64,000 nt of DNA from a virus. The stretch lies in IMG/VR virus record IMGVR_UViG_3300032050_010539. One strand, given 5' to 3'. Shown in pieces: positions 1,464 through 41,840 of this stretch. The first letter of the stretch is position 1, and each line of letters starts with the position of its first letter. The notes beneath the pieces are model-generated. The model had not been told where the DNA came from and ran no database searches. It worked only from the letters and a program-made list of their open reading frames with translations. Both the position numbers and the translations under genes were made by a program.

Positions 1464-1499
1464 AGAATTGTCCTCCTGGGACTAAAATTCACCAGAAGG

Positions 1500-1520
1500 A
1501 AAAAGGGGCCCGCAGGCCCT
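1500..1520 (-). terminator. Short GC hairpin plus U-tract upstream of the leftward gene
   Basis: Minus strand reads AGGGCC-TGCG-GGCCCC-TTTTT (5-bp stem). Confidence 0.35.
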
Positions 1521-3289: not shown

Positions 3290-3696
3290 TAACAGGAAGG
3301 TTCCGTATATATCCGAGTAGAGACAACTATATGTTAGAGGAAGACGGTCACTACTATGAGGCCCGCATTCACGACACTGTGGGATCTCTACTATTATGGG
3401 GGCACCAGAAGAGAGAGGGGCATACAGTAGACTATAAGGCCATAGTAATACCAGACGATAATATAAATGAGGACGGCCATATACATAGTAGAGTGGGATG
3501 GGTAGGGTTATGTCTTCCCTACCTAGATGCCGGTATAATAGCGCACGAGGCCCTACACATAGCCACATCATATCTGAGACTGAAGGGTCTACTTAAACTA
3601 GGAGAAGATATAGATGATGATGAAGAGACATTAGCGTATACGTTAGGTACGGTAATGAGCCAGATAGGGGCGTATATACACAAGAGATACAGATAG
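3286..3696 (+). CDS. Hypothetical protein with HExxH metallopeptidase-like motif
   Basis: IIAHEALH..DEETLAY; ATGA overlap with the upstream stop supports start 3286. Confidence 0.6.
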   Translation: MITGRFRIYPSRDNYMLEEDGHYYEARIHDTVGSLLLWGHQKREGHTVDYKAIVIPDDNINEDGHIHSRVGWVGLCLPYLDAGIIAHEALHIATSYLRLKGLLKLGEDIDDDEETLAYTLGTVMSQIGAYIHKRYR

Positions 3697-5856: not shown

Positions 5857-6106
5857 TTTACTAGCTCTAGTACGCCTACTGAGTCGAGCTCATCTTACAT
5901 GGGCCGGCCCGTATCTCACAGTAGACTATGAGGGAGTGATAATCCGCGTAGGTCAGGGGGAGTTGAGTATAGATACCAGTAATCATATGATGATTAACTG
6001 CAATCACAAGGAGGATAGTAGACCAGATGTTTCCAGCGTGCAGGATAGGAGATATGGTGAGGAGCATATGCCCCAGGATACCCGACGGGCCTTTCTACAC
6101 AGGTAG
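5825..6106 (+). CDS. Hypothetical protein with basic/hydrophobic N-terminus
   Basis: 93-aa ORF between 5856 and the PAAR gene; overlaps PAAR by 80 nt. Confidence 0.5.
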   Translation: MMMKLIRFLSSLLALVRLLSRAHLTWAGPYLTVDYEGVIIRVGQGELSIDTSNHMMINCNHKEDSRPDVSSVQDRRYGEEHMPQDTRRAFLHR

Positions 6107-6284
6107 TCCTGATACTATGATTAATGGTAGACCCGCCATACGAATAGGGGACATGTCAGTGCCGGGCCCTGCTATCACTGGTAGCCCGCGCACATTTATT
6201 AATGGCATACCCGCCGTGAGTATTATAGATAACGTCTTCTGTGGCGTTATAATAACAGGTAGCGAGGACACCTTCATAGACTAA
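6027..6284 (+). CDS. PAAR-repeat spike-tip protein
   Basis: Three PAAR-like repeats (PACRIGD, INGRPAIRIGD, INGIPAVSIID) with ITGS spacers and Cys residues. Confidence 0.9.
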   Translation: MFPACRIGDMVRSICPRIPDGPFYTGSPDTMINGRPAIRIGDMSVPGPAITGSPRTFINGIPAVSIIDNVFCGVIITGSEDTFID

Positions 6285-7679: not shown

Positions 7680-7948
7680 CACTCTCAGACTACAAACTCA
7701 CATACGAGATAACATCACTACCGACTATAATATTCGCTGGGATGACCGCGGCGGATGAGCCATTTCACTTCACTCGCTTTGAGGTGCCCCCCATTAATGG
7801 TCCTATCGAGTGCCGCTTTTCACTATTCGATAAGTCAGGTAATTTAATAGAGTTATCTAATCAATATGTGCACAGTACTACGCTAGTGGCTACCTGCAAT
7901 ATAGTGCCACTGCGTATGATAGAGAAGCTAGTTAAACCAGATCCATAG
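7673..7948 (+). CDS. Hypothetical protein
   Basis: Last of the operon; 17-nt convergent overlap with the giant ORF. Confidence 0.6.
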   Translation: MVTLSDYKLTYEITSLPTIIFAGMTAADEPFHFTRFEVPPINGPIECRFSLFDKSGNLIELSNQYVHSTTLVATCNIVPLRMIEKLVKPDP

Positions 7949-10900
7949 AGTAACTCTCACTCTCATCTCGATAGGCCATACTATTAGGACGATCTACTGT
8001 TAGGTCGCTCATGTAGAGGGCGTCATAGGTGTCGTATTCATCACCATTGAATATAGTTTGTACGAAGAACTCAACAGGGGAGCCCGTGTCATCTACGACC
8101 TCGGTTTCAGCATTATCCTCTCGTTCCATGCGAGCTCGATTCATACCTTCTTGAGTAGCGCGTATACCAGCACTAACAGCGTCTAGAGCCGCGGGGGCTA
8201 CACTACGCTGCATACTGACCTCTAACCCACGATGAAGTAACTTATTTACGAAGCCTGCTGATACGAGACTCAATGCCCCCGTGATGACGTTGCTAGCTAC
8301 ATTACGCAGGCCCGCGAATGGGTCAGAGTCTATTGTGGGCGCCTTACCGAGTGTCTTCTCTACGAATGGGTTGATAATATAGCGGCCTGCGAGTTGAGCT
8401 GTTGCGCCAAAGGCTATCTCCTGTGCTAGTAGCATACCGACACCAATTGTATAGTCCTCGTGTAGTTGACCTGCTAGGCGGCCCTTGAATCCCATACTCA
8501 TCAGAGTACCTGCAGCGAAACGTCCCATCTGGTTACCTGCTGGGGCGCTTACGTAGGCCATAGCGCCTAGCATATTACCCATAGTCTGCTGCATTGCCTC
8601 GGGGCGGGCTCCGCCACTACTAATCATATCTCCTGCCAGTGCCATTAGGGGGAATAGAAGTACATCCATTAGATTACCGGCAGTATTGTTAAGAATAGGT
8701 AGATCATCTGCTACGCGTAAGAGGGGGCGGTCTGGTCGCGGGCGAGGGTCTAGTGGGTCTACATCAGGGGGTGAGCCGGCCAGTAGATAGTCGCGCCGAC
8801 GAGCTGATAACTCCTTAGCTCTATCTGGGGCGACCCCCATATCCTGTAGCAGTTTTATATAGCGCGTATCGACGTCACGGCTCTCATAATCTCGTAGCTC
8901 CTCTACTAGTCTATCGGCTGTATCTACCTGCTGACCTAGTGCTGTAGCGCGAACATAAGTAACTAATCGACTAGTGGCTGTCTCATCTGTGAGAACTGTC
9001 TTCTGAATAAATTCTGCTATCTCCTTATCAGCTGGGCTAGGGGTACCGCTATTGAGTAACACACTAAAGATATCTGCTATTTCATAGCGCTTACCATCAG
9101 CGTGAGTGAAGGTATCCATAAGAGACTCGAGGGCCCGTGTTACCTGCTCAGGCTCGTTTATCTTCCCGGCTGATACAGCCTGTAACAGTGATCTAACTAG
9201 CGGACTAGCTCCTGAGCCAGTAAGGTCACCAGCGGTAGTAATCAGATCCTGACCGAGTACATCCTCTAGTTGTCCTCCGTATAGTGTGGAGCGGGTACTA
9301 TCATTAATAGCGAAGCGCAGTAGTTTACTGCCATCAGTATTAGCCCAGAGTGATGCACTCTCCCTACTACGTAGGAAGTTCATAGCTAATATACGCTTAG
9401 TATCCGTACCCATATCCTGGAAGCGCTTATCTCCTATTACATCACGAGTGAAGTTCTGGAACTCTTCTACTTCTATCTCCATCTCGGTGAGGCCATTAGT
9501 GATGCCGCCTGCTATGAGAGTATCTATCTGAGCGGCCCGCGCGGGCTCACTATTTATGTAGGTCTCTACACTCTCTGCTAGGCCTCTACCAGAGCTAATG
9601 GGGTTACCTGCCTTATCGGTTGGCATAGCCCGCTCGAAGGCGAATACAGCCGTCATACCTACTAGGTCCTGACGTAGTTGATAACTGGCTATGAGGGCGC
9701 GGCTATGAGTACCTATTTCATCTCCTCGCAGTACGCTCAATCGACGAGATAAATCTAACTGCTCAGTTTCTCCAATGGATAGCTTAGTCAGCAGATCATT
9801 AATCTTAGAGTCCTGGGCATCATTAGTAGCTGATGCCAGTAATTCTTTATGAGCCCCTATATACGCATCTAACTTGAATAGAGGAGTTATAGATGGTAGT
9901 AGTCTACTCATATCATCTACTACACGCTGGCGCTCCACATCATCGACAGCATCTACAAAGCGCTTATGGTACTGCGATAAGTTCTCTAGGAACTCAGCAC
10001 CCCCCATCTTAGGCTTAATAGCGTCCCGCAGCATTTGCTGTATCTCTTGTAGGAATGTGCCTACCTCGCCTACCTCTGTTCTACTCTGGCGGGCCAGTCT
10101 CTGTATATCCACTATCTTACTATCGGCCTCTAGGTTAACATCACTCGCGCTCATGCCTCCTGCCATACCCTGATCGATTAGTATACGACGCATGTCATCC
10201 TGTAGGGCCGAGCTATTCTCTAGTGCGTGAGACACAGCCATGATGGGGGAGCGCTCGTATAGCATACCCACGGTAGTGTTATACGTCTTACCGAGGATTA
10301 CACTACCTGCCTGGCCCAGTACCTTCTGCATCATATCGAATTGGCCGCCGCTCATGACACTACCATCAGCGCGCTTCATGTACTTGCTGAGATTATCGCG
10401 GGCATTAACAGCAGTTAGTTTATGCAGGAAGTCATAGGCCTTCTCTTCCTGATCATTACCTGTAGCGCTCAGGATATCATGTAGACTAGCCCGCACGAAT
10501 GGCCCCGTATCAGGGTTATTAACAAGATCGGTTAGTATGTTCTGATCCGTAGAGGTAGATAATCTATTGACTATATCAACTGCACTATCAGTTCTGCTCT
10601 GCTGTATTAATTCTAATAAGGGCTCATGGGCCGGCTGTATACGCGCGTATACGTCCTCCATCATACCGAAGAGACCGCGGGACTGTTCTACTAATACCAG
10701 GGCATGTTCTATACCTCGCTGTTCCAGCATACCCTTATCTAATTTCATATAGCCCGCTACCCAGCTATACACTGAGTCGGTATACTCATTCCAATTAGCA
10801 TTAGTGGCTACCTGCTGTATAGTATCCAGTAGAGCACTGGCACGCATATCTAGGTCATTAGCTTGCTTCTCTAGAATGGTGCGCTTAGCGGGATCAGCAG

Positions 10901-13900
10901 CCTGAGATGCCATCTCCCGCCGCTCCTTAGCGCGTTCCAGCATATCATCACGCTGCAACTTCATCTGAGAGTAATTGAAGAATATAGCGCTGAAGGTATC
11001 CCCGTCGAAGTCCCCTAGGTTACTAGTTATAAAGCTGATGGGATTAAGTAGAGTCAACGACTTATTACGAGTATCATCAAAGAAGTTAAAGCCACTGCCA
11101 GTTAGGTCCCGGTATATGTTATTGATACTATTGAGCGTATCTAAGCCGAACACCAGCTTATCGAGATGGGTGTTCCCAGGAGGCGGGCTACGTTGAATCC
11201 AGGCTCTTGTTAACTCTAGCTCAGTGAAGAACATACTCATATCAGCCTGTAGAGTACTATTCATTATGAGTAATGAATCGCGCGCCGCACGATTAGCCAT
11301 TACTGTATCTAGTTCCACTGCATAGGCAGCGTTTGCATCACTTACCAGCTTCCTATACTGAGCTATGAGAGCTACACCTCTATTATGTAAATCAGTGCCC
11401 CGCGGGCTCTTACCTTCTAAATACGTATCTACAGCAGAGGTCACGGCATTAATAGTTCTCTCTAGACTATCTAGTCTAGTAGAGAATGTATTCAGCATCT
11501 CAGCACCATCCTTACCACGCGTATCGCTGAAGAAGGATAGGTCTATGGGATTCTTACGTATACGGCCCTGTAGTAGATCCAGGTTATCAAACCTATTACC
11601 TAATGCATTAGTGTCAATGTAGATCCGCATATTATCAGGTATGATAGAGCGGGACGGGCCCTGACTACCTATCATGAGCCCAGAGATAATAACAGGTAAG
11701 TGACCCAGATCTCTATACTTATGAGTTTTAGCTCCAGGCAGAGATTCTAATATTGTTCCCATCTCGGCTTCACCTAGAGTAGATATTAGAGAATCCCCGC
11801 TACCGCTGAATTTCATGCTACTGAATCTATCCATCTCAACTTTAATTTCTATCTCTAGTTGAGCGTATTCAGCTGCCTGTGAATCAGGAGCCAGTTTTCT
11901 TATACCGGCTGCTTTGCTCTGGAAGTTCTTACTTTTATCTACTACTGTCTCTAGCCCATACATACCCGCTATACTGAGACCCTCAGTTATAGCGTATATC
12001 TGCTGTTGTATTAACCTGCGACCAATTCTCTTATCACCTGACTGGCTAATAACAGACAGGTTATTCTTAAGATGGTCCCCTAATCTACTAAGTATCTCCT
12101 CTCGTGTCTGACTACCTCGCGTACCAAAGCGCTCCATAGTGGCCTCTGCTAGTACGGCGCCGCGCACAGGTACATACCAGCTAGCGGCCCCTACACCAGT
12201 AGTACCTGTCACACCTATCTTATTACCAGTGATAGACTGCAGATATGCACTCGCCAGGTCATTATAAACGCGGGCCTCATAAGTGTTATTGAGTTCCTGG
12301 AACCGAGTCAACTCCTGTATCTGGAAGTCACTGAGGCCCTCTAGTTCAACAGTAGTCCTCGAGCCAGACTCAATGGCCACCTTCTCGAAGATATCGCGTA
12401 CTGCACTACCGGGGGCCAGCATAATCCACTTATCTACCGTAGCAGCGGCTATCTCATTCTCGTGGCTACCGAACTGGATACCTGCTATCCTCACGTCCTC
12501 AGGACTCAAGATAAATCCCCTATCCTTAATAGTTGTATTGAATACAACGTTATTCCCCTCTATACGGAAGGAGGGGAACTCATAGGCTATACGACGAAGA
12601 CCCTTCTGGCCCATTGACTGCACGGTAGCTTCAGTAGCCTCTACACCCAGTACCTTATCCCCTGCTAGACGCCAGCGAGACGCATGGGCATATACATCAT
12701 TCTTCAGGACACGAAGTGACTGGCGCACTACATTACGCAGAGTATCTCTATCGGTCCCAGCAGGTTGCCCCATCCATGTAGCTATCTCATCAAGTATAGT
12801 ATGAGTAACATTAGTAGTATCGAGGCCCGACCCTCTAGTATATGACACCATGTCAGTATCACTGGCACTCTCGAGTAGAGACAATGCAGTGTGGAACTGC
12901 CTGTATCGTTCGCGTAGATTAGTTATATCACTTAATGGGGCCCGCGCATCGTTATATGCTCCTAGTAGTATCTCTCCCAACGTAGAGTTAGCGTGGAAGT
13001 CCAGACTAGCCAGGTCATACATAGGGATATCATCCACCGCTATTTTATTGGGGTCTGCCCCTATGGCCATCTTCATGACGCCAAGGATAGCCCTACGCAT
13101 ACTATCAACACTACCATCACGCTTGAATTTATCCACGTTAGCCATGAAGGGACTAGATACTATATGCTGCATTTCTAGTTGCGCAGTGTCCTTACTACTC
13201 AATGGCACCTTAGAGCTACTACCCATCACGGCATTATATAGCACTACATAGCGAGAGTAATTACTCAATCTATCGAGCATAACGGCCACGTTCTCCTGGC
13301 CTACGCTTATCTCATCTGCCTGCGTAACACCTGCTATAGCGCTCATAGCCGCATACGCATGACGAGATATACTATCGCTACCAGTCACTGGCGTAGTCTT
13401 GAGCTCTAGGGTATTATTAAGTGACATGAGCTGCATCATAATCTCTAGATTACCGGCTATAGCAGCACGCTCAAAGCCGCGACCCATAGCCCCAGTATCT
13501 ACATAACCCCTGCGCGCTGCATCTGCTGCATCTACTATCAGACCTACCTTATTAGATAGTGCCCCGCTACTAGTTCCACTGCGCAGGGCCATCATTATCT
13601 CTGATATATCAATGGCCCCTAGAACAGGACTCTGTAGTCTATTAATAGCACCATCACCCCCGCGTACTAGCTTCTTACCTATTTCGAGATGAGGGGGGCC
13701 ATCTCCTAGTTTATCATTCCGCATAAGTTCCAGCATAGTAGACATATAGAGGTCACGATAGTAATTACCGAGCCGCCCCTGCGCTGCCAACTGCGCTATC
13801 TCTATATGGACACTGTCTATATTAATATTGCTGCTATTACTAAAGAGACGCGAATCAGTTATGGAAAGGAGAGCGGCCGCTATCTGCTGATCATTCCGTT

Positions 13901-16900
13901 CTAGTACCCCCCGACGGAATAGCTCCCCGCCATTATAGGTAAGTAGAGTAGCCCCGTGGTTGAATGCGTAGCTCTTCAGGTTAGTGGGGCTGATTATATA
14001 CTGGATGTCCTCTATCTCGAGGGCACTATGATAGCCCCCCTGCTGTATAGTGGGGAACACCTCACTACGCATAACGTCCTCGCTCAGGAACACAGGGACT
14101 ATCTTAGCCAGACCGCGCTCTGCCTCTACCCTTCGAGAGCCACCCTCAAGTAGAGTGCGTAGGAATTGTATCTGCACCTGCACCTCATTAGTAGCATCGC
14201 TACCAGTCAGCCTACTGACCTGTAGTAGCTGCTCAATAGCGTACTCGCCTCGTATACCAGCTGCGGCACTAGTAGCCATAGCGGCCCCCATATTAGGATT
14301 ACGGGATGTACTCTCTATCTGGTCTAGGAATACACGCATCTCACTACGACTAGTGATAGCCTGCTTACGGCGCCCCTCTCTATCTAGTAGATAGTAGCGC
14401 TGCTCTCTCTCATCGAATACAATACGGTCATCGCTACTCACCAGTATATTATCGAATGTCCAATCCCGCCCTAGTAGACTAGCCTTACTACTCTTAGTAG
14501 CCTGATCTAGGAAGCCGCGTCTTACCCTATGTAGAGGGTTAGCATACGCGTAGTCACTATAGGCTCCCTCCAGTGCCATAATCATAACAGTAGGACGGGC
14601 CTGTCCAGAGCCTATCAATCCCCGCTCTCTACTAGCGAATAGCTGAGATTGCACTATAGTGGCGCGGAATAACTCGGCCAGTACGCTATCATCCTCAGTG
14701 GGTATATCCTCACTATCGATACCCAGGCGGTCGGCCAATTCATACCGTATAGCCTCTAATTCTACAGCTGCCTCACTACTCATAAAGCGAGATATTCTAC
14801 CACTGAATATAGCACCATAGCGATAGCTATCATCTACGATACTACTATCTAGTCCACGTGCCTCTAACCCGGCGCGCAGGTCAGCTAGGTATGCGTCCTG
14901 ATACATGCTGCCCTGCAGTACATCTACATCGCTACCTCCGTAACGGGCTTGATACCTAACGGGGGTCAACTCAGGTATGACCCTACCGGTATCAGTGGGA
15001 CTAACTAACTCCAGCACCCGGGTATAACCCTCGCTTATATCCATGAGCGGGCGCATACCAATCACGTTCTTGAGACGCTGAGGCACCTGATCCGGCTTAT
15101 TAGGATCAAAGAAGAACCGGAGTAGATTATCGCCGCGGGCATCGAACTCTGCTTCTAGCAGGGAGCGGTCTATGCCCAAATGGCTCACTGCCTTCATGTA
15201 TTCACTCAGCTCATCTCGTCGTATGATATCTCCCACACCAGTACTGCGTATGATGGATAGGTCGAAGACCTCACTGGCAGTGGCACGGCGAGATAGAGGT
15301 AGCACATTATTATAACCAGTAAAGTACTGGCTCTCATCAGTAGCCGTAGGGCCTGCATTACCTTCAGCAACTCGTACAAAGAGAAAGTCATCGCCTACAC
15401 CAAGATCAGATACCGGACCTACAGGCAGTGGGCTGGCAGTATAAGCAAAGGCACTCAGGTTACTAAAGGTAGTCTCATTAGCCTTAATACGACGTAGTGC
15501 GGCATTAACTATAGATATACCAGCGGGCTGCCTATCCTGACCAAAACCGTAGGCTAGTAAGCGATTACTTGCTTGTGTAGAACCATAATTACGAGCCTGT
15601 GTAGGGGTAAGGAACGCGGCGAATGCACTATCATGTATCTCCTTTAACCTCTCGCGCGCATCAGTCTTATAGCGACTATCATTCTGGGATTCGATAAACT
15701 TGAATAACACATCAGCGAACATAGGGCCCTGATCCATAATCTCATATAGCTTATTAGCAGCAAGATTAAGGGCCCCTCTGCGGTGTGCCTCTAGGTCTAT
15801 TATGGGCTGGCCTCTTTCATCTGCAGACCGCGCATAGGTAAGAAATATGTTAGATAGTTCCTCGAAGGCCACTCTACGGCGGCTATCAATACGAGATATA
15901 CCCGCTAGGTCTCGTATACGATCTAGATCGGGGTCACTAGAGTAAAACAAGGAGGTCAGGTTACTGAGGCCCTGCTGTACTCTACTAGTACCCTCGTCCG
16001 TGGTTAGGTCAAGACCACTCACGCCCAATAGCTTCTCGAAGAAGTTCATGGCACTCTGATACTGAGCGCCAGGGTCGCGCTGTACGGCTTGGGCAGCGCG
16101 TATATTATCAGGGCTATAGTACCTCTGGTACTCTATAAGTGGGGCCCGCACTAAACGAGTAGTCTCACTCTCTAACGCAATAGAGCTCATGAGACCCACT
16201 ACTACATCCAGTGGATTAAGGCGCAGGCGTCTACGGGGATCCAGACCCACACCAAGACCATCACGTTCTATAGCCAGCTCCATACGCATTGTGCCAGTAT
16301 TGAACAGCTCAGCTGACTCTATCTGACGACCCCCGCTTATATCTATGAAGGCGGCGGGCCCCTGTCCACTAGCGTTCTTATAGGCACCCCATCTATATAC
16401 ACGCTGAGTAGGTAGGCCCTTATTGAGCGTTAGAGTAGCGCCCTCTAGGTTAAGACCATCGTAGTCTCGCTGTACGCCTATGACCTCAGAGCCTACAGCC
16501 GCGTTAACTCTCTCTATTTCGTTGATTAGGTCCAGTATGGCTCCTCTATCTACTCTATTACCGTACATAGACCTACGGTCCCGTTCACTATAATGAGTCT
16601 CACCTATTCGTTGTATTCCCAGGGAGCTCTGTAATTTATAGAAGGCCCGCGCGTATTCTCTATTCTCCTCATTACGCTCCTCATTAGAGAGACTGAGAGG
16701 GCTTGTACCCCCCACCCTATCGTAAATTATATTGATCTCCTGGTTAACGAATTGGCGGCTCAGGGGATCATCATTATCTGCCAGAGAATTAAGACCATAG
16801 TTACTAGATCCCTGGCTACCACCCAGGATATCGAAGGCCTGGCGATTGTTTATATTCTGCATGTCAGGCCCGGCCCCTTGATTTATGGCGTCATTCTCGT

Positions 16901-28446: not shown

Positions 28447-30771
28447 ATGGCTCGCGCCCCCTTTATAGAATTTCAAGATAGCAATGTAGGTTTAGCCTTG
28501 CCGCGGCCGAACGTATTGAATCGGATTGCCATCATAGACCGATTTAATCGAGGGCCGGCTAACCTCCTGACCTACATTGGTAACTTCTCAGACTTTGCGA
28601 ATCGCTATGGCTCCGACACTAGTCCAGGTTCATTACAATACCAGGTTGTATATGATCAATTCACTAATCCAGATGATGCTAACATTGCCCTAGTACGAGT
28701 TACTGGTCGGGGCCGCCCTGCTTCTGCGTCCCTCACATTCTCTGGTGTAGCGGGAGTTAATAACACTCTCAATATCCACACCAATTTCGTGGGAGAGGTC
28801 ATTGCTCGCGAGGATGGAGCCGCTGATATAGTGTGGCCTATGCTCACTAATACTACCGTAGCGCCTGTAGTCAATAATAAAGAAACGGTAACTGCAGAGG
28901 GCCCGTATACTGGTTCTACCAGTGGCCGATACTTCCTTCGTGTTGATGATGTCGATGCTGGTGTAGCTACTATTAAATGGCAGTTTGTACCACTGGGTCA
29001 GAATCCACTTAACTGGGCGGCTGTCACTACGGATATTGATGTTAATATCGCTGCTGGTGTAGATAGTTCTAGTAACATTCTCATTTCACTAATTAGTAGT
29101 AACATCAGAGTTCGCTTCGGCACTGTAGCCGGTGCGGCCCTCAATCTAGTAGAAGGTAATAGCTGGAGTATTAGAGTTAATAAATATGTAGTCCCTGTGC
29201 CTATCTCTAGTGGCGACCTACCTAACCAGATTGTCACTAGTCTGATCAGTGCCTCTGTAGGTGTGGAGCCTTTTGGTGAGATTACTCGTAATGTTGAGGA
29301 CAACGGAGTAGTCATTCAATTAGAGCCCTCCCTCACTGGTTCTATCAGCAATCGCTTCTCGTTCTACGTAACGACAAACGATAACACTGCTAATAGAGGT
29401 TTTACCGCTAGTCCTGCATTAGTCACTACTATTCCGGATCCCGTTACTCATTTCACTTCGTTCCAGGGCGGATTGGATGGTCCTCGTAGTGCATTCCGTG
29501 ATTTCTATACCTTCAATGGTACCCCTCTCCTACGCCTCCAAGCAGTCAGTGAGGGTAGCTGGGGTAATCAAGTTACGGTTAGTATCTATCCTGTGAGTAA
29601 TAGCGAGTTTCGCCTTACTGTACGAGACCTAAGTGGTAGTGCCTTCGACCCACCTCTCGCTGATGAAGTTTACACTGTTAAGCTGGAGGATACAAACGAA
29701 TCAGGTGAATTAAATGCACTCCTCGATTCGAAGTTTATCCGAGGCTTCTTCTTACCTAAGTCCATCGACTCGATTAATTACGACGCCGCTCTAGTACGTC
29801 AGTCACCGCTGAGAGTAGCCCCGCCCGACGAGAGTGAGACTGATGTTGAGAACCCTACCCACGTGGATTTCTATGGTCCTAATGTGTTAGTGAATGTGAC
29901 ACTAGAGAATGGCTACGACGGGCCTCCTGTAACTAATGATGACTATGTCAGCATCATCCGTACTCTAGAGAACCAACCTGTGCATATTCTTCTAGTGGGC
30001 ACTACTAACGTAGGTGTTCAGCAGGCTCTTATTACTGAAGCCGAACGTGCTCGTGATAGTGATGGCCTTCGTATTGCAGTATTAGCTGCTCCTCCGCGCA
30101 CTACCCCTTCTCTGGCCGCCAATATTACACGTGGATTCAACTCCACCCGTGCGGTTATGGTGGCAGGCTGGTTTACGTACGCTGGCCAACCTAATAGTAG
30201 TCGCTATGGTGTGCCTGGTGCTGCTGTTTACGCAGGTAAATTAGCTGCTATTGACTTCTTCGTCAGTCCCGCAGCGCGGTCTCTTGTCGGGCCCCTCTTT
30301 AACATCATAGAGTCTGATACGGATAACTATGCTAGCCGCAGCAATCAGGACATTTATTCAGCTGCGCGGTTAGAGGTACTGACTCTGGATACAGTTGATC
30401 GTACCTACCGCTTTGCTAGTGGTGTTACACTATCTACTGATCCTGCATGGGAGCGTATATACTTACGCCGGGCTCACGACGTTGTTAGGCAAGGGGCGCA
30501 CGCTATCCTACGGAATTATGTGGCTATGCCTAATAGTCGTTTAGTCCGTAATCAGATAGCCGCCGCTCTTAATGCCTTTATGGGCGAGCTCAAGCGGAAT
30601 GGCAGCATTGTTAGCTTCCGGCCTGCCATTATCGATAGCAACAATAATAGCGCAGCGTCTTACTTTAGCCGCGAACTATACGTTAGTTTACAATTCCAGC
30701 CCCTTTATAGCGCGGATTATATCTACGTGACGATTAGCCGCGACACAGAATCCAGTCCCTTAGGCGAGTAA
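28447..30771 (+). CDS. Contractile tail sheath protein
   Basis: DRFNRGPAN..F..RYG, EGSWGN.V.V, LENGYDG, WERIYLRR and FQPLYSADYIYV sheath signatures; 774 aa. Confidence 0.92.
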   Translation: MARAPFIEFQDSNVGLALPRPNVLNRIAIIDRFNRGPANLLTYIGNFSDFANRYGSDTSPGSLQYQVVYDQFTNPDDANIALVRVTGRGRPASASLTFSGVAGVNNTLNIHTNFVGEVIAREDGAADIVWPMLTNTTVAPVVNNKETVTAEGPYTGSTSGRYFLRVDDVDAGVATIKWQFVPLGQNPLNWAAVTTDIDVNIAAGVDSSSNILISLISSNIRVRFGTVAGAALNLVEGNSWSIRVNKYVVPVPISSGDLPNQIVTSLISASVGVEPFGEITRNVEDNGVVIQLEPSLTGSISNRFSFYVTTNDNTANRGFTASPALVTTIPDPVTHFTSFQGGLDGPRSAFRDFYTFNGTPLLRLQAVSEGSWGNQVTVSIYPVSNSEFRLTVRDLSGSAFDPPLADEVYTVKLEDTNESGELNALLDSKFIRGFFLPKSIDSINYDAALVRQSPLRVAPPDESETDVENPTHVDFYGPNVLVNVTLENGYDGPPVTNDDYVSIIRTLENQPVHILLVGTTNVGVQQALITEAERARDSDGLRIAVLAAPPRTTPSLAANITRGFNSTRAVMVAGWFTYAGQPNSSRYGVPGAAVYAGKLAAIDFFVSPAARSLVGPLFNIIESDTDNYASRSNQDIYSAARLEVLTLDTVDRTYRFASGVTLSTDPAWERIYLRRAHDVVRQGAHAILRNYVAMPNSRLVRNQIAAALNAFMGELKRNGSIVSFRPAIIDSNNNSAASYFSRELYVSLQFQPLYSADYIYVTISRDTESSPLGE

Positions 30772-30775
30772 TATA

Positions 30776-31486
30776 ATGTCATCTAAAGATGCTCTTTTCC
30801 TCACTCCTGCTGTCAATAACTTTGGTCTCGATCCCTTTAGTGGGTTTGACTTCGAGGTCTGGGTTAATGACACTAGTAGCGGACAGATTGCCTGGTTCGG
30901 TAAGTTCCAGTCCCTGACGCTCAGTATTAGAAATTCAACTGAGACCTATTTAGAATTAGGCCAACGCGTACCTGTCTATCTAGACGGGGAATTTAACATC
31001 GCGTGGGTACTAGAACAAGGTTTAGTTGATGGTGAATTTATGGGCCGCACGTTCGGCACTAATGAAATTGGTCGTGATCAAGTACTAGGTCGGAGCCCCC
31101 GGTTCCAGATTACCTTCGATGCTAATGCAGCTGAGTTAGTATCTTCACCCCTAACTCGTAGTGGAACAGATAGCCGTAGATTAGGATCCCTTGACTTCTG
31201 GAATATCGATTCTAATGTCGATAACCAGAGTGGCATTGAGTTCCCTTCTAATAGTGCTGCTAGTCGTAATCGTAGGGCGAAATTCAGATATGAAATAACT
31301 AGATGCAAGGTAGATAACTACAGCGTCGGCTTCATGCCTGGTCGACGCGTACCTGCACAACGTTGGGAGGGTGTAGCTGAAGGTATTCGGTATATTCCTG
31401 AATCTGTTCAGCAGTTCAAAAACAATACTCGTCCTATATCTGTGGGAAGCTCTTCTTCATCGTTTGGGAATAGTATTACACAATAA
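30776..31486 (+). CDS. Tail tube protein
   Basis: DPFSGFDFEV..GKFQSL..E.G..L.G..I.L.QG (T4 gp19-like pattern); follows the sheath. Confidence 0.8.
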   Translation: MSSKDALFLTPAVNNFGLDPFSGFDFEVWVNDTSSGQIAWFGKFQSLTLSIRNSTETYLELGQRVPVYLDGEFNIAWVLEQGLVDGEFMGRTFGTNEIGRDQVLGRSPRFQITFDANAAELVSSPLTRSGTDSRRLGSLDFWNIDSNVDNQSGIEFPSNSAASRNRRAKFRYEITRCKVDNYSVGFMPGRRVPAQRWEGVAEGIRYIPESVQQFKNNTRPISVGSSSSSFGNSITQ

Positions 31487-31507
31487 TCCCACATTCTCTC
31501 CGCTCAT

Positions 31508-31537
31508 GGGACTCAGGATTTCCTGAGTCCCTTTTTT
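31508..31537 (+). terminator. Intrinsic terminator
   Basis: GGGACTCAGG-ATTT-CCTGAGTCCC followed by T6. Confidence 0.9.
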
Positions 31538-31544
31538 ATTAATT

Positions 31545-33416
31545 ATGCGTCCTAAGACACCTGCTGCAGTAATAACGCTGGCCACAGCTGTTAGTGATAT
31601 ACAACCTATATTATTTGGCACTCAGATATGCGCTACTGATATAAACAAGAGTCGCTGGACTGTACGCGCCGTAGATGTTATAATCAATGCCGATAACTGG
31701 AATATAAATAGAGCTCGCGTAACGCTAACCGTACCAGATGCACCAGGATTACTACCAGCGCTACCTGATGTTAGTAAGTACAGGGGCGGGCGCTACCCCT
31801 ACCTCAGCGAGGAGGATGAGATTCGAATTTACATGGGGATGGTAGGGTCAGATAAGCAGGTACTGGATATCAGTAATCTATCTGATATACCATTTCCTAT
31901 ACCAGATACAGATATGAAACCGAAGGAGGGCGCTACTCTATTCCCTGTATTCTGGGGCTTCATTGAGAAGGTAGAGGTAACGGCTGATGCTAATACAGGT
32001 GTGCAGGTAGTGCTATCGTGTCAAGATCGTATGAGGCTACTACACAACACACGTGTTCTATCTAACCCAGATACCTTATTCAGTGCCCCCACACCAGAAC
32101 AGAAGGGCGATAGAGCCCTCATACTGCGTAAGATACTGAACTTTGCAGTAGGTTACTCCCCTATTGAAACAGAGAGCGGCCCGCAGGTAGCCAGCTGCTG
32201 GAAGGAGTTCAAGGAGGGTATGACTGTACGCGGCTACGACATAGGAGCAGATGGTAAGATAGAATACTTATTCGCTAATAAACTAATAGCCGGAGATGCG
32301 AGTAATTCTGAGGTTAAGATTATACAGGACATGAATAAGCTTACGCCAGGCGAAGAGCTAGTAGATGCGCCGCGTTGGACACGGGCTGCTATGTTCACGC
32401 CTATGAGCCCAGGAGGTAACCCCCGTACTCATATATGGTTACAGCGCCCGCCTATCGAGCAGGGACAGAACCGCGGGGTATTCAACTTCATTAATGAGAG
32501 CCCCGCTGATATAATACAAGCAGCGTTTCTACTCAAGGAGGAGCGCGTAGTAGACGCCTCATTCAGCCATATCAATGGTGATTTTATAATAGCGCCTAAT
32601 AGCGGCGATACTAGTGGCTTCCAAGATCCCAATAGGCTGTATAGAACCTATTTCTTCCGCAGCCTACCGGCGGGTCTTAACATATGTCCTGATGAGAGAC
32701 AGCGCATACTCTCCATGCGGGTAGTAAGTAGTAGTATAGCCACAACTAACCGCTTTATAGTAACTGATGATGGAGGTAATGGCGCATCTGATTCATTCAA
32801 TGATGCCATCGAGGTTACATTACAGGCCACGCCCTATAAGTACGCTAATAGAAATCCTCCTATTGCATGTAGGGCCACTGTCGTTGAGGATAAGAACCTA
32901 AGCGCCTATACTGACGCAGGCATCAGTAAAGAGACAGGGGCTTTATTAGTTGGTTTAGGTATGGCCCGCCGTACCAGTAGAGATATTAGCACGATACAAA
33001 TCACGATAGTAGGGGACCCCACCTGGTATCCGAATGAGATGTTTCAGGTGTATAATACATTAATACACGATAGGCAGATTATATCAGCATATGATTCTAT
33101 AGCAGAGGAGAGTGCTATGCACGCTACTAAGAAGGAGTTGAGTAATCTATCAGCGCGCATGCGAGAGCACGTAGCAAGTAGCCCCTCGGCGCGGGCCGTG
33201 CCCTTTCCTGATGGCAGTGATATACTAACACGGTACGTAGGTGCCCACGTCAATGCCACTGATGATAACTATGCTGATCCTAATAGTGGCCGCATAGTCA
33301 GCAATGTAGACGCTAATCTAGCTAACGCGGTACTACCGAAGTACAAGGTACGCTCGATTCGTCATAAGTTAACACACAGAGATTACACTACTACTATTCA
33401 AGGAAGCGCTGATTAA
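31545..33416 (+). CDS. Baseplate hub protein (gp27/gpD-like)
   Basis: EIRIYMG, VFWGFIEKV, SCQDRM, IVGDP and YKVRSIRHKL..YTTTI hub-type motifs. Confidence 0.65.
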   Translation: MRPKTPAAVITLATAVSDIQPILFGTQICATDINKSRWTVRAVDVIINADNWNINRARVTLTVPDAPGLLPALPDVSKYRGGRYPYLSEEDEIRIYMGMVGSDKQVLDISNLSDIPFPIPDTDMKPKEGATLFPVFWGFIEKVEVTADANTGVQVVLSCQDRMRLLHNTRVLSNPDTLFSAPTPEQKGDRALILRKILNFAVGYSPIETESGPQVASCWKEFKEGMTVRGYDIGADGKIEYLFANKLIAGDASNSEVKIIQDMNKLTPGEELVDAPRWTRAAMFTPMSPGGNPRTHIWLQRPPIEQGQNRGVFNFINESPADIIQAAFLLKEERVVDASFSHINGDFIIAPNSGDTSGFQDPNRLYRTYFFRSLPAGLNICPDERQRILSMRVVSSSIATTNRFIVTDDGGNGASDSFNDAIEVTLQATPYKYANRNPPIACRATVVEDKNLSAYTDAGISKETGALLVGLGMARRTSRDISTIQITIVGDPTWYPNEMFQVYNTLIHDRQIISAYDSIAEESAMHATKKELSNLSARMREHVASSPSARAVPFPDGSDILTRYVGAHVNATDDNYADPNSGRIVSNVDANLANAVLPKYKVRSIRHKLTHRDYTTTIQGSAD

Positions 33417-34981
33417 TGTTTGCTAATAATAATGGTGGCCTATACTCTGAGCCCTATTCCCATAAGTACAGTAAGAGCCAGTGGGGCATACAGCGCGGCA
33501 TAGTCCATAATATCACTAGGGAGGGCCGCCTAGGTAATTTCTGCTCGGTGCGCCTATTGAAGGGTATGATCCTGGATAACGTTAGGATGAGCGGCCCCTT
33601 TGGTCATAATGGGCTAGGCGTATACAACCCACTCGAGATAGGACAGCCAGTCCTAGTGGGCTTCAATGATGGGAAGATGGAGGATGCCTTCATCATAGGC
33701 GGATATACATCAGAGGGTAACTACGATAAGTTATACGTAGATGGTGATTTACAGAAGCCTAATCAGCGCGGCCCCGAGGGTCAGACATTCAACCAACCAC
33801 TAGGGCATCCTAATCGCATAACGCAGCCCAATGCCTTCTTCCACGTAACAGGCATCAATTCACTAGATACGGCGTATGATAGCCCTGATTACGGTTCACT
33901 AGCAGAGGCCTATGATAGACAACCCCGCCCCGGTGTTATAGAGATACGCAATGACGAAGGCACCCGCTCTCTCTATACAAGCGGAGAGAATATACTATTC
34001 AGTGATAGTAACATCTACCTGGTAGCTAACGGCGACCGCCGCAGCAGTGTCAATCACCTCCTGCAGCTATCAGCACGACACTGCGCCCGGGCGGATGGAC
34101 TAGAGAGAATGCAGGGTATCAAGCCTACATCGGCTACCACGAAGTCACTGCCTAGCGGCATAACACCTATGGTAACGGGGCAGGAGGAGGAGTCTGTATC
34201 TACGACTACTGCTATAACAGTTTCCTATCGTATACAAGAGGAGAGGCGGTTATGTCAGGCCTACCTAGAGGCTAGCCGCCAGAATTTACAACGACAGGCT
34301 GAGGGCATAGCGCGCGTTGAGGATAGTGCACAAGACATACCTACACAGAGGGAGCCTGAGGTATCTGATACATATAATGAAAGCCGTAAGAATGATAAGG
34401 ACTGGCAGAGTGCTACTAATAAGGAGCCTACTCGCTGGTTCATAACAGCCGGCCACCGCGACGGTGTATCAGGTACTAGTGGAGCTGCTGGCACACCTCT
34501 ACCCCAGGCCCCAGGTCAGTCGGCGGAGAGTTGGATGAATGAACAGGTTGTCAAGATAATGGAAAGACTAGCCCCCTCTTACGGTCTCCAACTATCTATA
34601 TTCTTACCACCAATAGGTACCTCCTGGCAATCAGTGTTAGATAGAGCCGTGCAGGAGAAGGCCAATGGCGCGGGTGTTCTAGAGATACACTTCGACGCAG
34701 GTGCGGCAGGAGAGTATAGGGGTTCCACTGGCGTCATACCTAGCCGTAAGGAAATACTACCATACGAGGATAGACTAGCTCAAACATTTGGCGCCTTCAC
34801 CAGAAATCACCGCAACGGCTTATACGGGCCCAATAGAGGAGTACCGCTAGTTGAGGTAGGAATATTAAATGCGCAGGTAGAGGCTCTAATGAGAGGAAAT
34901 GATACAGCAGCACAAAATGCCTATTTTGAAGAGAAGGCCCGTGCTGTTTTACAATCCCTGAAGGGGGGGGCACCAATATAA
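33416..34981 (+). CDS. Baseplate spike OB-fold fused to N-acetylmuramoyl-L-alanine amidase (Amidase_3)
   Basis: N-terminal G.G.YNPLEIGQPVLVGF..FIIG (gp5/VgrG OB fold); C-terminal ITAGH, E..N, LEIHFDA and LVEVG zinc-amidase motifs. Confidence 0.75.
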   Translation: MFANNNGGLYSEPYSHKYSKSQWGIQRGIVHNITREGRLGNFCSVRLLKGMILDNVRMSGPFGHNGLGVYNPLEIGQPVLVGFNDGKMEDAFIIGGYTSEGNYDKLYVDGDLQKPNQRGPEGQTFNQPLGHPNRITQPNAFFHVTGINSLDTAYDSPDYGSLAEAYDRQPRPGVIEIRNDEGTRSLYTSGENILFSDSNIYLVANGDRRSSVNHLLQLSARHCARADGLERMQGIKPTSATTKSLPSGITPMVTGQEEESVSTTTAITVSYRIQEERRLCQAYLEASRQNLQRQAEGIARVEDSAQDIPTQREPEVSDTYNESRKNDKDWQSATNKEPTRWFITAGHRDGVSGTSGAAGTPLPQAPGQSAESWMNEQVVKIMERLAPSYGLQLSIFLPPIGTSWQSVLDRAVQEKANGAGVLEIHFDAGAAGEYRGSTGVIPSRKEILPYEDRLAQTFGAFTRNHRNGLYGPNRGVPLVEVGILNAQVEALMRGNDTAAQNAYFEEKARAVLQSLKGGAPI

Positions 34982-36159
34982 TGTGGAATAGAGAGAATCT
35001 ACAACCTCTACTGAATAGGCCTGAGTTTAGGGCCCTCCTGGATGTAATCAGTGATGAACAATTTGAGGGGGCCGACTACAATACACTATATGGTGGATCT
35101 ACATTCAGTAGTTACGAGGACCACCCCCGCCAGAGATTTCCAATAGGAAATAATGGGAACTACACCACGGCCGCAGGTAGATACCAAATCTTAGATGTGA
35201 CGTGGGATGGTATTAATAGAGAGACTGGAGGAATGCTATCTGACTTCAGCCCTCTGAATCAGGATCTAGCCGTATTATATTTAATACTCGATGAGACTGG
35301 TACTACGGTAGAAGAGGTCATGAGTGGTGACATACTAAGCTACTATAATAAGCTACAGAAACAATGGACTAGTCTACCGGGGGCCTCTGAAGCACGAGGT
35401 GGAGAGAATACGCTAGATACTCTATATAAGCAATATCTAGCCTATAGGCGAGGACAGGGCCCGGCACCATCTACCTTGAGTGGTGGTGGGAGTAATGCCC
35501 CCACCATACCGGGCGATAGTGCTTATTCTAATGAACAGTTAGAGGGTATAGATGGATTTGTTAATGCTACATTCAATCGTACAGGAGAGTTCAAGTGGCC
35601 CTATAACCAACGCGATGCCATTATCCATACAGGTTCCGTACCTCAGGTTAATAGAGCTATGACTAATAATTCTCTATCCTATGGAGCAGGAGCCCCCGGG
35701 TTTCAGTTCAATGAGGTAAGCGCATCAGCAGGTCAGGTAATGCCTGGTAGTCCAGGCTCTGGGGGTGGCATAGTACCCTCTAAGGGACCTCTGACTAGTG
35801 GGTTTGGCTGGCGTTGGGGTAGGATGCACAACGGTATAGATATAGGGGCTCCAATAGGCACACCTATATTAGCCACTATGACAGGCAAGGTGATATCAGT
35901 CGGATTCGAGAATAATGGATTTGGTAATATAGTTAGACTAGAACACGTAGGGGGCAATCAGAGTTGGTACGCGCATATGAGCAAGTTTGCTGTTAAATTG
36001 GGAGACGTAGTACAACAAGGACAAGTAATAGGTGAAGTAGGTAATACTGGCCGTAGCACTGGTCCTCATCTTCACTTTGAGTGGAGAGTAAGATCTGGTA
36101 TAGGTGGGGGTCTGAATGCAGTAGACCCGCGCCTTACCGTATTAAAGGGATTAATATAG
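34981..36159 (+). CDS. Lambda-R-like lytic transglycosylase/lysozyme plus M23 endopeptidase
   Basis: TAAGRYQIL..TW, DFSP.NQD, WTSLPG; HNGIDIG, YAHM, GNTGRSTGPHLHFE. Confidence 0.9.
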   Translation: MWNRENLQPLLNRPEFRALLDVISDEQFEGADYNTLYGGSTFSSYEDHPRQRFPIGNNGNYTTAAGRYQILDVTWDGINRETGGMLSDFSPLNQDLAVLYLILDETGTTVEEVMSGDILSYYNKLQKQWTSLPGASEARGGENTLDTLYKQYLAYRRGQGPAPSTLSGGGSNAPTIPGDSAYSNEQLEGIDGFVNATFNRTGEFKWPYNQRDAIIHTGSVPQVNRAMTNNSLSYGAGAPGFQFNEVSASAGQVMPGSPGSGGGIVPSKGPLTSGFGWRWGRMHNGIDIGAPIGTPILATMTGKVISVGFENNGFGNIVRLEHVGGNQSWYAHMSKFAVKLGDVVQQGQVIGEVGNTGRSTGPHLHFEWRVRSGIGGGLNAVDPRLTVLKGLI

Positions 36160-36163
36160 ACTA

Positions 36164-41044: not shown

Positions 41045-41394
41045 TGGTAACACCAATAGACGCCCCACAAGTCATACGCTACGGCATAGCGGTATACGCG
41101 CCCCCTCTACTTAACGTAGATAGCCTGACGCTCGAGATTCTCTATAGTGAAAGCCCCAACCCCCGCCTTATACCCCGCTCTACTAGTACGCGCCTATGGA
41201 AACGAGAGAGTGAGCAAGGGGAGAGGGGCACCCTATTCCTATGGAAGAAGGATAATCAATTAACTCGAGGCTACTATACACTTATATTAGAGGCAAATAA
41301 TAGACGAGGCTACTGTTCTATTGCGTTAACGGCGCCCACCGACTACTGGATAGTAGGGCTACCCTATAGTATTTATCCCCCTATAGCTTTATAA
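41044..41394 (+). CDS. Hypothetical protein
   Basis: Coupled (TAATG) 116-aa ORF. Confidence 0.65.
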   Translation: MVTPIDAPQVIRYGIAVYAPPLLNVDSLTLEILYSESPNPRLIPRSTSTRLWKRESEQGERGTLFLWKKDNQLTRGYYTLILEANNRRGYCSIALTAPTDYWIVGLPYSIYPPIAL

Positions 41395-41396
41395 AT

Positions 41397-41774: not shown

Positions 41775-41840
41775 GCGCTCTCTAGAGCGAGTTCCAATTA
41801 ATCTTAAGCCTTATTAGGGGCAGACATAACAGGTATTTTT

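Follow-up and report, generated by a model that had tools for sequence, protein, structure and literature searches.

The 64,000-nucleotide stretch of viral DNA analysed here (the window; IMG/VR record IMGVR_UViG_3300032050_010539) raises the question of whether a phage infecting Microcystis carries an RNA polymerase inside a giant protein and, if so, when in the infection the enzyme would act. The gene concerned is the following:

7932..18620, minus strand: giant ORF of 3562 aa, the orthologue of gp080 of Ma-LMM01 (NC_008562 57700-68388; nucleotide identity 96.6%)

Existing annotation says little about it: the counterpart in NC_008562 is a 'hypothetical protein', the protein belongs to PHROG 31006 (function unknown), and UniProt names gp080 only as a PLD-domain protein. 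The papers on Ma-LMM01 and MaMV-DH01 describe these phages as devoid of an RNA polymerase of their own and dependent on host sigma70, and no paper in the literature searched connects two-barrel polymerases with Microcystis phages. A preliminary description of this DNA had proposed that the protein hides a single-chain polymerase with a beta-like and a beta'-like barrel, possibly undescribed in this phage group; the latter point is consistent with these papers, which would be contradicted if the proposal is true. All ten motif strings quoted there (10/10) were found at the residues given, and the DFDGD codons lie exactly at 10998-11012 of the window.

The family of the giant protein comprises at least 61 clusters at 50% identity, made of metagenomic proteins mostly of 3,200-5,400 residues, and the RNA polymerase motifs are its most conserved features; the motif residues are invariant in 8/8 homologues (25-42% identity). 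Each of the eight residues that PMC2919709 gives as universal among two-barrel polymerases is matched by a conserved residue here; the matches are ordered as in single-chain enzymes and span two regions of the protein 1,100 residues apart. The first of these regions contains the following features:

15048..15089, minus strand: PQRLKNVxGxRP motif, aa 1178-1191, upstream of the beta-like barrel (R1182, K1184, N1185, G1188 invariant, n=35)
13164..14657, minus strand: beta-like barrel region, aa ~1322-1819, resembling the hybrid-binding/DPBB part of second-largest RNA polymerase subunits
14553..14555, minus strand: D1356, at least 90% conserved (n=42); may correspond to Rpb2-D837 / beta D814, the second metal ligand
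14103..14132, minus strand: basic loop R1497...K1506, which may correspond to Rpb2 K979/K987 (R1497, L1504, K1506 invariant, n=42)
13950..13982, minus strand: NLKSYxxxHGA motif, aa 1547-1557, possible counterpart, assigned by eye, of the PSRM(T/N) funnel arginine segment of beta/Rpb2 (K1549, H1555 invariant)
13164..13220, minus strand: SxSKxxxSSKxxxxxExQH motif, aa 1801-1819 (S1801, S1803, K1804, E1816, Q1818 at least 90% conserved, n=42)

Within the barrel, PTVMIMALEGAYSDYAYANP (aa 1343-1362) contains D1356, NEVQ...AKIV (aa 1478-1508) contains K1506, and DIQYIISP and AQLEMQH occupy aa 1538-1545 and aa 1813-1819, the latter inside the SxSK motif. The invariant residues K1549 and H1555 belong to the same 42-sequence alignment, in which conservation is at least 90% at N1547, S1550 and G1556. 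The spacing from D1356 to R1497 is 141 aa, compared to 142 aa from D837 to K979 in Rpb2 (residue numbers from PMC2919709); the corresponding insert of about 140 residues between the aspartate and the basic loop would be as in multisubunit enzymes, unlike QDE-1. The beta-like barrel looks closer to the multisubunit-enzyme barrel than to YonO, gp66 or QDE-1. A Pfam search with the upstream PQRLKNVxGxRP motif gave no match.

The second region contains the putative beta' elements:

12198..12227, minus strand: GxKxxxxGxxT strand (G2132, K2134, G2139, T2141), with which the beta'-like barrel begins (cf. GKRVDYSGR); invariant in 8 homologues, consensus in 55
11211..12113, minus strand: helical insertion of ~300 aa, aa ~2170-2470, that divides the beta'-like barrel (model helices H69-370)
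11175..11192, minus strand: R2477-x-x-P2480-x-G2482, corresponding to the Rpb1 R446-x-P448 loop but longer by a residue (R and P at least 90% conserved, n=55)
10998..11051, minus strand: LLNP...GDFDGD, aa 2524-2541, candidate metal-A loop
10215..10349, minus strand: 45-residue helix, aa 2758-2802, with GQAGSxxLGKxYN; bridge-helix candidate (model helix H659-703)
10017..10148, minus strand: helix of 44 residues, aa 2825-2868, with QxLRDxIKPK at its end; candidate for a trigger- or bridge-type helix (model helix H726-769)

The strings quoted for this region were located at aa 2127-2143 (LQSITGNKIGVTGTTGV), 2474-2480 (WIQRSPP), 2524-2527 (LLNP), 2534-2542 (NLGDFDGDT), 2775-2781 (ILGKTYN) and 2861-2871 (QQMLRDAIKPK). 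The GxK strand corresponds to E40-47 of the structure model, no basic switch-2 residues are evident ahead of it, and the helical insertion is about 450 aa longer in some relatives. Conservation of DFDGD in related phages was the check that the preliminary description had set for itself: in an alignment of 55 diverse members with a mean column identity of 13%, both loop aspartates and the following GD (D2537, D2539, G2540, D2541) are the sole invariant columns, and LGDFDGD is also kept in the homologue of Microcoleus phage My-WqHQDG. At least 90% conserved in the same alignment are R2477, P2480 and G2536, G2769, G2772, G2777, Y2780 and N2781 of the first helix, and Q2862, R2865, D2866, K2869 and K2871 at the end of the second.

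Neither Pfam nor PDB profile searches detected an RNA polymerase in the giant protein. Alignment with hhalign to a 78-sequence beta' profile gave an E value of 0.013 (probability 3%), the same score as a mismatched control; the GDFDGD loop was placed, weakly (E 0.054), on ADFDGDQMAVHV of E. coli beta'. Comparison of structures gave a different picture: 49 of the 50 top Foldseek matches in the PDB of a model of aa 1280-2000 are RNA polymerase chains, mostly second-largest subunits (probability up to 0.99), the BFVD library again returned almost only second-largest subunits, and realignment of the model covers Rpb2 ~735-1059. A model of aa 2100-2900 matched four largest subunits weakly; in VIA these matches begin at the GxKxxxxGxxT strand and stop at model residues 764-774, in the 44-residue helix. 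The structural scores are modest, each below conventional significance. YonO, gp66 and QDE-1 were absent from the matches in every search run.

Prediction of the beta-like and beta'-like regions as two chains scored 0.78 (best of 3 controls, 0.00). Of 80 solved complexes 58 reached this mark, as did 2 of 110 mismatched pairs. The runs share at least 60% of their contacts, and the partner pLDDT is at least 67. Both chains come from one polypeptide, so contact as such is expected, and the pass may stem from the predictor's memory of beta/beta' complexes, indicating likeness rather than independent proof. The predicted interface includes D1356, G1493-R1497, K1506 and aa 1804-1818 on one side, and the GxK strand (aa 2133-2149), W2474, P2479, LLNP and D2537-G2540 on the other.

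These three lines of evidence (motif conservation, fold matches to RNA polymerase subunits and an inter-barrel interface built from the motifs) support in silico the proposed single-chain two-barrel core. The giant protein very probably holds a catalytic core of the cellular RNA polymerase type, which we place with high confidence in aa ~1320-2870; the product is probably RNA rather than DNA. The aspartate D1356 and the basic loop with R1497 and K1506 would come from the beta-like barrel, and R2477/P2480 and the metal-binding loop D2537-F-D2539-G-D2541 from the beta'-like barrel, split by its helical insertion; face-to-face packing would make one active site of these residues, with the two long helices following in the position of bridge and trigger elements. 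Against the core stand the negative profile searches, the RxxP form of the loop and the lack of evident switch-2 basics. The failure of every sequence-profile test, structural scores that singly miss significance and the UniProt name would also fit a large ejection or structural protein with the PLD domain as its sole enzyme, an unrelated metal site in the DFDGD loop and RNA polymerase matches that reflect a chance likeness of small beta-barrels. This is very unlikely: eight catalytic-site residues are conserved in the right order in two distant regions, two independent libraries give almost solely second-largest subunits, and the predicted interface consists of exactly those conserved residues.

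Multisubunit RNA polymerases (Rpb2/beta and Rpb1/beta'; poxvirus RPO132/RPO147; baculovirus LEF-8) are the best and nearly sole fold matches; the eight catalytic-site residues are common to both, GDFDGD matches NADFDGD and the aspartate-to-basic-loop spacing agrees. The giant protein differs from them in being one polypeptide, beta then beta', with no detectable profile similarity or Pfam RNA polymerase domain, an RxxP instead of an RxP loop, no evident switch-2 basics, and clamp, dock and zinc elements that were not recognised. The beta-then-beta' order in a single chain is shared with SPbeta YonO and with NCgl1702 of Corynebacterium glutamicum (2169 aa, a beta::beta' fusion; PMC2919709), likewise phage- or prophage-borne proteins otherwise unlike others. 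YonO and NCgl1702-type enzymes lack an insert in the beta barrel (PMC7824862), whereas the giant protein appears to have one, a comparison made by descriptions only.

The polymerase would be flanked by two further modules:

16461..18113, minus strand: PLD-like domain at the N-terminus, aa ~170-720, carrying a pair of HxK motifs whose H, K and N are invariant (n=37)
17712-17762, minus strand: first HxK motif, H287/K289/N303
16800-16925, minus strand: second HxK motif, H566/K568/N607
7935..9923, minus strand: family-specific C-terminal region, aa 2900-3562, with an acidic tail, conserved in 29-34 family members

The N-terminal domain is confirmed at the sequence level as a putative PLD-type phosphodiesterase: PLDc_2 matches 21 of 37 members (best E 7.7e-9) and PLDc 12, the window protein itself matching PF00614 under the curated cut-off (E 0.021, aa 283-306). 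The C-terminal region contains a Gly/Ala-rich, weakly hydrophobic stretch (aa ~3300-3480; window 8181-8723) with one hydrophobic window (aa 3315-3338), and 29 C-terminal regions gave no match to a tape-measure or other PHROG/Pfam family.

On the flanks of the giant gene lie two structural genes:

19467..20807, plus strand: portal gene (Portal_Mu; Pfam E 1.9e-26; PHROG 113)
6027..6284, plus strand: PAAR-motif gene, 85 aa (Pfam PF05488, E 3.3e-13)

The portal gene and the giant gene point away from each other, separated by two or three small ORFs; on the other side, a 302-aa gene comes after the PAAR gene, together with three small genes converging on the giant gene. Both arrangements are kept in two further genomes (L004 and L005), and the placement between portal/capsid genes and the PAAR gene persists in relatives at 26% identity. 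In published Ma-LMM01 RNA-seq, gp080 is of class B5, with log2 counts of 0, 0, 7.3 and 8.5 at 0, 1, 3 and 6 h, a timing shared with the portal gene, the early genes having reached ~7-8 by 1 h.

This conserved placement and the expression alongside structural genes suggest that the protein is packed into the virion and used early. Expressed together with the structural genes, the giant protein would be incorporated into the particle, reach the cell with the DNA and make the first phage RNAs, the host sigma70 enzyme transcribing the remaining genes. Against this role count a plausible sigma70 promoter of the Ma-LMM01 early operon and the host-like promoters published for all expression classes. 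A role as injected early transcriptase has, in our estimate, slightly less than an even chance, virion location and target genes being deduced; the whole explanation, core plus injected role, is the one we favour, and is fairly probable.

Coliphage N4 injects a virion RNA polymerase of ~3,500 aa with the polymerase in mid-protein, expressed late and having a T7-like right-hand fold instead of two barrels. Its size and three-part layout are like those of the giant protein, and the two would be functional analogues only. A further precedent is Thermus phage P23-45 gp96 (PMC10770324), a giant tailed-phage virion protein with a single-chain two-barrel polymerase for the first transcripts, fused to a tape measure. 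As a non-exclusive variant of the favoured explanation, the C-terminal third of the giant protein could likewise set tail length, the polymerase passing down the tail tube. The Gly/Ala-rich hydrophobic stretch, the small ORFs adjoining the giant gene (a putative frameshifting chaperone pair) and the lack of a recognisable tape-measure family in the tail module within the window are in line with this. We regard it as improbable given the absence of tape-measure matches among the 29 C-terminal regions and the position of the gene, divergent from the putative chaperone ORFs, beside the portal gene and 8 kb from the sheath and tube genes; moreover, the polymerase is central here and N-terminal in gp96, a siphovirus protein with a recognisable tape measure.

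The polymerase could also be real but act in the cell after its own synthesis: as a non-virion RNA polymerase for a few late genes, as a primer-making or RNA-templated polymerase, or as a motor drawing in the genome, all of them possible roles. The gp080 mRNA is present at 3 h, when the late genes gp086, gp087 and gp091 have yet to peak; the Ma-LMM01 early operon has a plausible sigma70-like promoter (TAGCCA-N16-TATAAC); and two-barrel enzymes include RNA-templated and DNA-synthesising members (PMC2919709). Such a role is nonetheless unlikely, as the known non-virion RNA polymerases of phages do not resemble a protein of 3562 aa that also bears PLD and C-terminal modules, the portal-PAAR placement is kept at 26% identity, and host-like sigma70-type promoters, none phage-specific, precede genes of all expression classes, late genes included (Morimoto et al.).

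The favoured explanation resembles gp66 of the crAss-like Cellulophaga phage phi14:2, a virion RNA polymerase (PDB 6VR4; bioRxiv 10.1101/2020.03.07.982082) that is likewise a very large single-chain two-barrel protein with a DFDxD loop, encoded among structural genes and missed by ordinary sequence searches. It is QDE-1-like and from a podovirus; the giant protein, whose virion location is deduced, has in addition the multisubunit-type beta-like insert, ~300 helical residues in the beta' barrel and a fused PLD domain, and belongs to a phage with a contractile tail. In phi14:2 the virion enzyme is proposed to transcribe the early genes and the host enzyme the others. The expression classes published for Ma-LMM01 are in line with such a division of labour, middle and late genes falling to host sigma70.

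Window 7932-18620 is occupied by one minus-strand ORF of 3562 codons. Its DNA shares 96.6% identity with Microcystis phage Ma-LMM01 and about 96% with the MaMV phages; Ma-LMM01 and the MaMV phages serve as the reference lytic phages for Microcystis aeruginosa, which forms toxic blooms. This giant gene (gp080 in Ma-LMM01) is annotated as 'hypothetical protein' in the Ma-LMM01 and MaMV records; PHROGs places the product in a family with no assigned function, and UniProt/BFVD names it 'PLD phosphodiesterase domain-containing protein' and nothing more. A word-indexed search recovered eight full-length homologues (25-42% identity), with all the motif residues invariant in 8/8, and when 1.8 billion cluster representatives were searched with a profile, the family grew to at least 61 clusters (50% identity), almost all of them proteins of 3,200-5,400 residues; a family of this size points to such enzymes being common among large phages not yet cultured.

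The preliminary description had read this protein as a single-chain two-barrel RNA polymerase (RNAP), and every motif it quoted was found at the residue assigned to it, with DFDGD at window 10998-11012. Conservation of DFDGD in relatives, which it had proposed as a check, was borne out: in the alignment of the beta'-like region (55 sequences, mean column identity 13%), D2537, D2539, G2540 and D2541 are invariant, and they are the only invariant positions. The corresponding DxDxD metal-A loop (compare Rpb1 D481/D483/D485) is also kept in the Microcoleus phage homologue. Other positions of this alignment are at least 90% conserved: R2477, P2480, G2536, and the GxxG..GKxYN and QxLRDxxK motifs. 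The beta-like alignment (42 sequences) has invariant R1497, L1504, K1506, K1549 and H1555, with D1356 conserved to at least 90%. Eight residues are common to all two-barrel polymerases: Rpb2 D837, K979 and K987; Rpb1 R446 and P448; and the three aspartates of DFDGD (Ruprich-Robert and Thuriaux, PMC2919709). All eight have conserved counterparts in the giant protein, ordered as in the single-chain enzymes, the sole deviation being the R2477/P2480 loop, near the predicted interface of the two barrels, which reads RxxP and is thus one residue longer than the RxP of Rpb1 (R446-x-P448), its candidate equivalent. The barrel aspartate and the basic loop (D1356 to R1497) are 141 aa apart, compared with 142 in Rpb2 and 29 in QDE-1. 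D1356 is accordingly a candidate counterpart of Rpb2 D837, and R1497 and K1506 are candidate counterparts of K979 and K987, assignments made from order, spacing and predicted interface rather than from a residue-level superposition.

Sequence comparison did not detect a polymerase. Pfam gave no RNAP match for the whole protein nor for the 55 and 42 family segments, HMM profiles of the beta-like and beta'-like regions retrieved only chance matches, such as gyrase A and SLMAP, among all PDB sequences, and a protein-language-model search for look-alikes returned no RNAP family or usable match. When hhalign was run against single E. coli subunits, GDFDGD alone was aligned with beta' (E 0.054) and no sensible alignment with beta was obtained. 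The homologue search with beta' gave only sequences at least 89% identical, and bacterial profiles were then built from 80 proteobacterial rpoBC loci (78 and 68 sequences). Against these, LLNP..GDFDGD fell on LHP..NADFDGD (E 0.013, 3% probability), an alignment that we count as uninformative because a mismatched control (beta-like profile against beta') scored equally.

Predicted structures were more revealing for one barrel than for the other. The AlphaFold2 model of the beta-like region (aa 1280-2000, family alignments, pLDDT 76) was compared with the PDB using Foldseek, and 49 of the 50 best matches were RNAP chains (E 4e-3 to 6e-2, probability up to 0.99), mostly second-largest subunits: Pol I, II, III and IV, bacterial, archaeal, poxvirus and ASFV. 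The BFVD list, once the protein itself is set aside, again consists of such subunits, with poxvirus RPO132, baculovirus/nudivirus LEF-8 and giant-virus RPB2. Taken one by one, the fold scores lie within the chance range of long helical models; it is the specificity for RNAP subunits that argues for the fold. As modelled, the beta-like region shows the beta-type barrel of the two-barrel superfamily. A wide VIA search with the same model was swamped by a C-terminal helical hairpin (aa ~1870-1990) and gave noise only. The best viral match in BFVD other than the protein itself (A0A172Q0S6, E 3.2e-3, probability 0.99) is an uncharacterised 798-aa protein of the Acinetobacter jumbo phage vB_AbaM_ME3, which may be an unrecognised beta-like polymerase subunit.

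The combination of AlphaFold and Foldseek, suggested for both regions in the preliminary description, upheld the beta-like barrel (49 of 50 RNAP chains) and gave nothing for the beta'-like one, whose model (aa 2100-2900, pLDDT 80, pTM 0.68) is helical for the most part and had no Foldseek match in the PDB. A fold search of the ESM Atlas yielded noise alone. The strands of this model (model residues 40-47 and 55-57, a helical insertion of about 300 residues, 373-377, 391-395, 424-426, the DFDGD loop and 443-448) follow an order that would fit a double-psi barrel split by the insertion.

The relation of the two regions was analysed in a two-chain prediction that paired aa 1319-1819 with aa 2119-2579. 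The score was 0.78, the best of three controls scoring 0.00, and the pass mark is one reached by 58/80 solved complexes and 2/110 mismatched pairs; at least 60% of the contacts agree between runs, with partner pLDDT of at least 67. Contact within one polypeptide is expected, and the predictor may have passed the pair partly through familiarity with beta/beta' complexes; the informative part is the identity of the interface residues. These are S1355-Y1357 (including D1356), G1493-R1497, K1506, V1508-V1516 and K1804-Q1818 on the beta-like side, and N2133-Y2149 (the GxK strand), W2474, P2479, 2509-2528 (LLNP) and D2537-G2540 on the beta'-like side. The interface is composed of motif residues from both regions, so that conserved residues 1,100 positions apart in the sequence are predicted to come together at a single site, arranged as in the active centre of a two-barrel enzyme. 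The motifs, the beta-like fold and the interface, all of them obtained in silico, uphold the single-chain polymerase, against which stands the failure of every sequence method to detect an RNAP; altogether, the giant protein very probably contains a polymerase core.

The architecture of this putative core differs from that of the QDE-1/YonO/gp66 clade (gp66 being the virion RNAP of phage phi14:2), in which the beta-type barrel is compact (29 aa from D709 to R738 in QDE-1). The D1356-R1497 insert of the giant protein is long and beta-rich (strands at model residues 88-212), and the fold matches of the beta-like model span about 220-250 residues of Rpb2-type subunits. Enzymes of the 6VR4 (gp66), 2J7N and YonO type were absent among the matches listed in the fold searches, an absence that does not exclude kinship. 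By fold matches and barrel architecture, the giant protein is closer to the beta and beta' of multisubunit enzymes than to the QDE-1/YonO/gp66 type. If the polymerase is real, a single-chain enzyme that keeps the multisubunit-type beta-barrel insert would be an intermediate between cellular enzymes and the minimal phage/RNAi-type ones.

Outside the putative core, the protein carries a further recognisable domain:
Window 16461-18113, minus strand (aa ~170-720): PLD (HKD) phosphodiesterase domain, N-terminal to the putative polymerase core, with HxK motifs.

Membership of the PLD (HKD) superfamily is confirmed by two HxK(x)4D...N motifs (H287/K289/N303 and H566/K568/N607), invariant in 37 relatives, and by Pfam PLDc_2, which matches 21 of these 37 (best E 7.7e-9); the window copy alone gives E 0.021, below the cut-off. 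We found no described precedent in the literature for a fusion of PLD and polymerase. The middle region (aa 718-1280) has no Pfam family. Within it, PQRLKNVxGxRP (aa 1178-1191, window 15048-15089) precedes the beta-like barrel by about 170 residues, its R, K, N and G being invariant in 35 relatives; the start of the polymerase module may thus lie N-terminal to the coordinates given in the preliminary description. The C-terminal 660 residues are family-specific, with one weak hydrophobic stretch.

Phage P23-45 gp96, a virion RNAP fused to a tape measure, has a recognisable tape-measure region, in contrast to the giant protein: no tape-measure or other match to PHROGs or Pfam was obtained with 29 C-terminal regions of the family. 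A tape-measure reading of the C-terminus, considered for a gene that adjoins the portal gene, gained no support from PHROGs or Pfam and is held to be improbable. No tape measure was recognised elsewhere in the window; in the tail/baseplate module (window 28447-45027) none of the genes matches the Pfam or PHROGs tape-measure families, and the genes that come after the sheath gene, coding for 236 aa and 623 aa, have no family.

The giant gene is divergent from a Portal_Mu gene, after which come the capsid, sheath and baseplate genes; its other flank carries three small genes, a 302-aa gene and a PAAR-motif gene. The same neighbourhood surrounds homologues that share just 26% identity and lie on 210-220 kb contigs, which places the giant gene firmly in the morphogenesis module and lends indirect support to a virion location of its product. 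Its expression agrees with this position: gp080 of Ma-LMM01 belongs to class B5, with log2 counts of 0, 0, 7.3 and 8.5 at 0, 1, 3 and 6 hours, a time course resembling that of the portal gene, and by 1 hour the early genes gp054-gp063 have reached about 7-8 (Morimoto et al. 2018, Table S3). Like a virion RNAP, gp080 is thus expressed with the morphogenetic genes and not early. Counts of 0 at 0 and 1 hours indicate that the polymerase is not an early product, so that any action on early genes would require its delivery by the virion. The giant protein would then enter with the particle and transcribe the early genes, as occurs in N4, phi14:2 and P23-45. Arrival with the particle for early genes is described for the crAss-like phage phi14:2 (bioRxiv 10.1101/2020.03.07.982082) and for P23-45 (PMC10770324). 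Evidence against such a role comes from the early operon of Ma-LMM01 (gp063), which is preceded by a reasonable sigma70-like promoter (TAGCCA-N16-TATAAC), located where an array of 42-bp repeats ends. Weighing both sides, an injected early transcriptase is plausible but unproven, and we put its chances slightly under even.

Papers on Ma-LMM01-type phages state that a phage RNAP is absent, and the transcription programme of Ma-LMM01/MaMV has been read as entirely host-dependent (PMC5780444, PMC9927357); no link to Microcystis phages was found in the literature on two-barrel polymerases. The suggestion in the preliminary description that this phage group is regarded as reliant on host RNAP, and that the system may be undescribed, thus agrees with the published record. 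What is new here is the giant-protein family, its PLD fusion and its host group; phage giant proteins with polymerase cores are already a known kind. The full proposal, that Fukuivirus (Ma-LMM01-type) and wider metagenomic phages (genomes of ~150-220 kb) carry in their particles an unrecognised class of PLD-fused single-chain RNAP, closer in its barrels to multisubunit enzymes than to QDE-1/gp66 and starting infection independently of the host enzyme, is offered tentatively, the odds being somewhat against it. If true, it would overturn the published picture, in which the host sigma70 RNAP does all the transcription of these bloom-controlling phages, and would give a function to the largest gene of their genomes; a particle-borne enzyme would also change the understanding of early infection, host take-over and escape from host defences.

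Several minor observations concern the surrounding DNA. The 42-bp tandem repeats upstream of gp063 lie outside the window (Ma-LMM01 record 43271-43551, which is 3514-3794 of L002, the part of that record used here); each repeat has TAGCCA followed by a short inverted repeat (CTCC-CCAGC-GGAG), and the last unit alone ends in TATAAC. A repeated element formed by a GC hairpin and TTTTYCTTYTAGTG lies between minus-strand genes (window 1490-1503, minus strand; L002 4000-4040; five more at L002 9096-11531), with six copies in 45 kb against 0.15 expected and conservation that reaches past the T-run. The hairpin and TTTTCCTTCTAGTG element was considered as a promoter for the polymerase; the one copy examined, which follows gp064, is shaped like an intrinsic terminator (GC hairpin and T-run, directly after the stop codon). 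The product of gp064 itself (1673 aa in Ma-LMM01), considered as a second polymerase, was discarded, having no Pfam match. The PAAR ORF (85 aa, window 6027-6284, plus strand, Pfam E 3.3e-13) keeps its position near the giant gene in two distant relatives (L004 22768-23028; L005 23822-24079), and the Ma-LMM01 record has only shorter hypothetical ORFs at this site. Finally, window 44001-52000, between the baseplate and DUF4815 genes, has a G+C content of 0.37-0.39, compared to 0.46-0.49 in the rest of the window, and may be an acquired segment.
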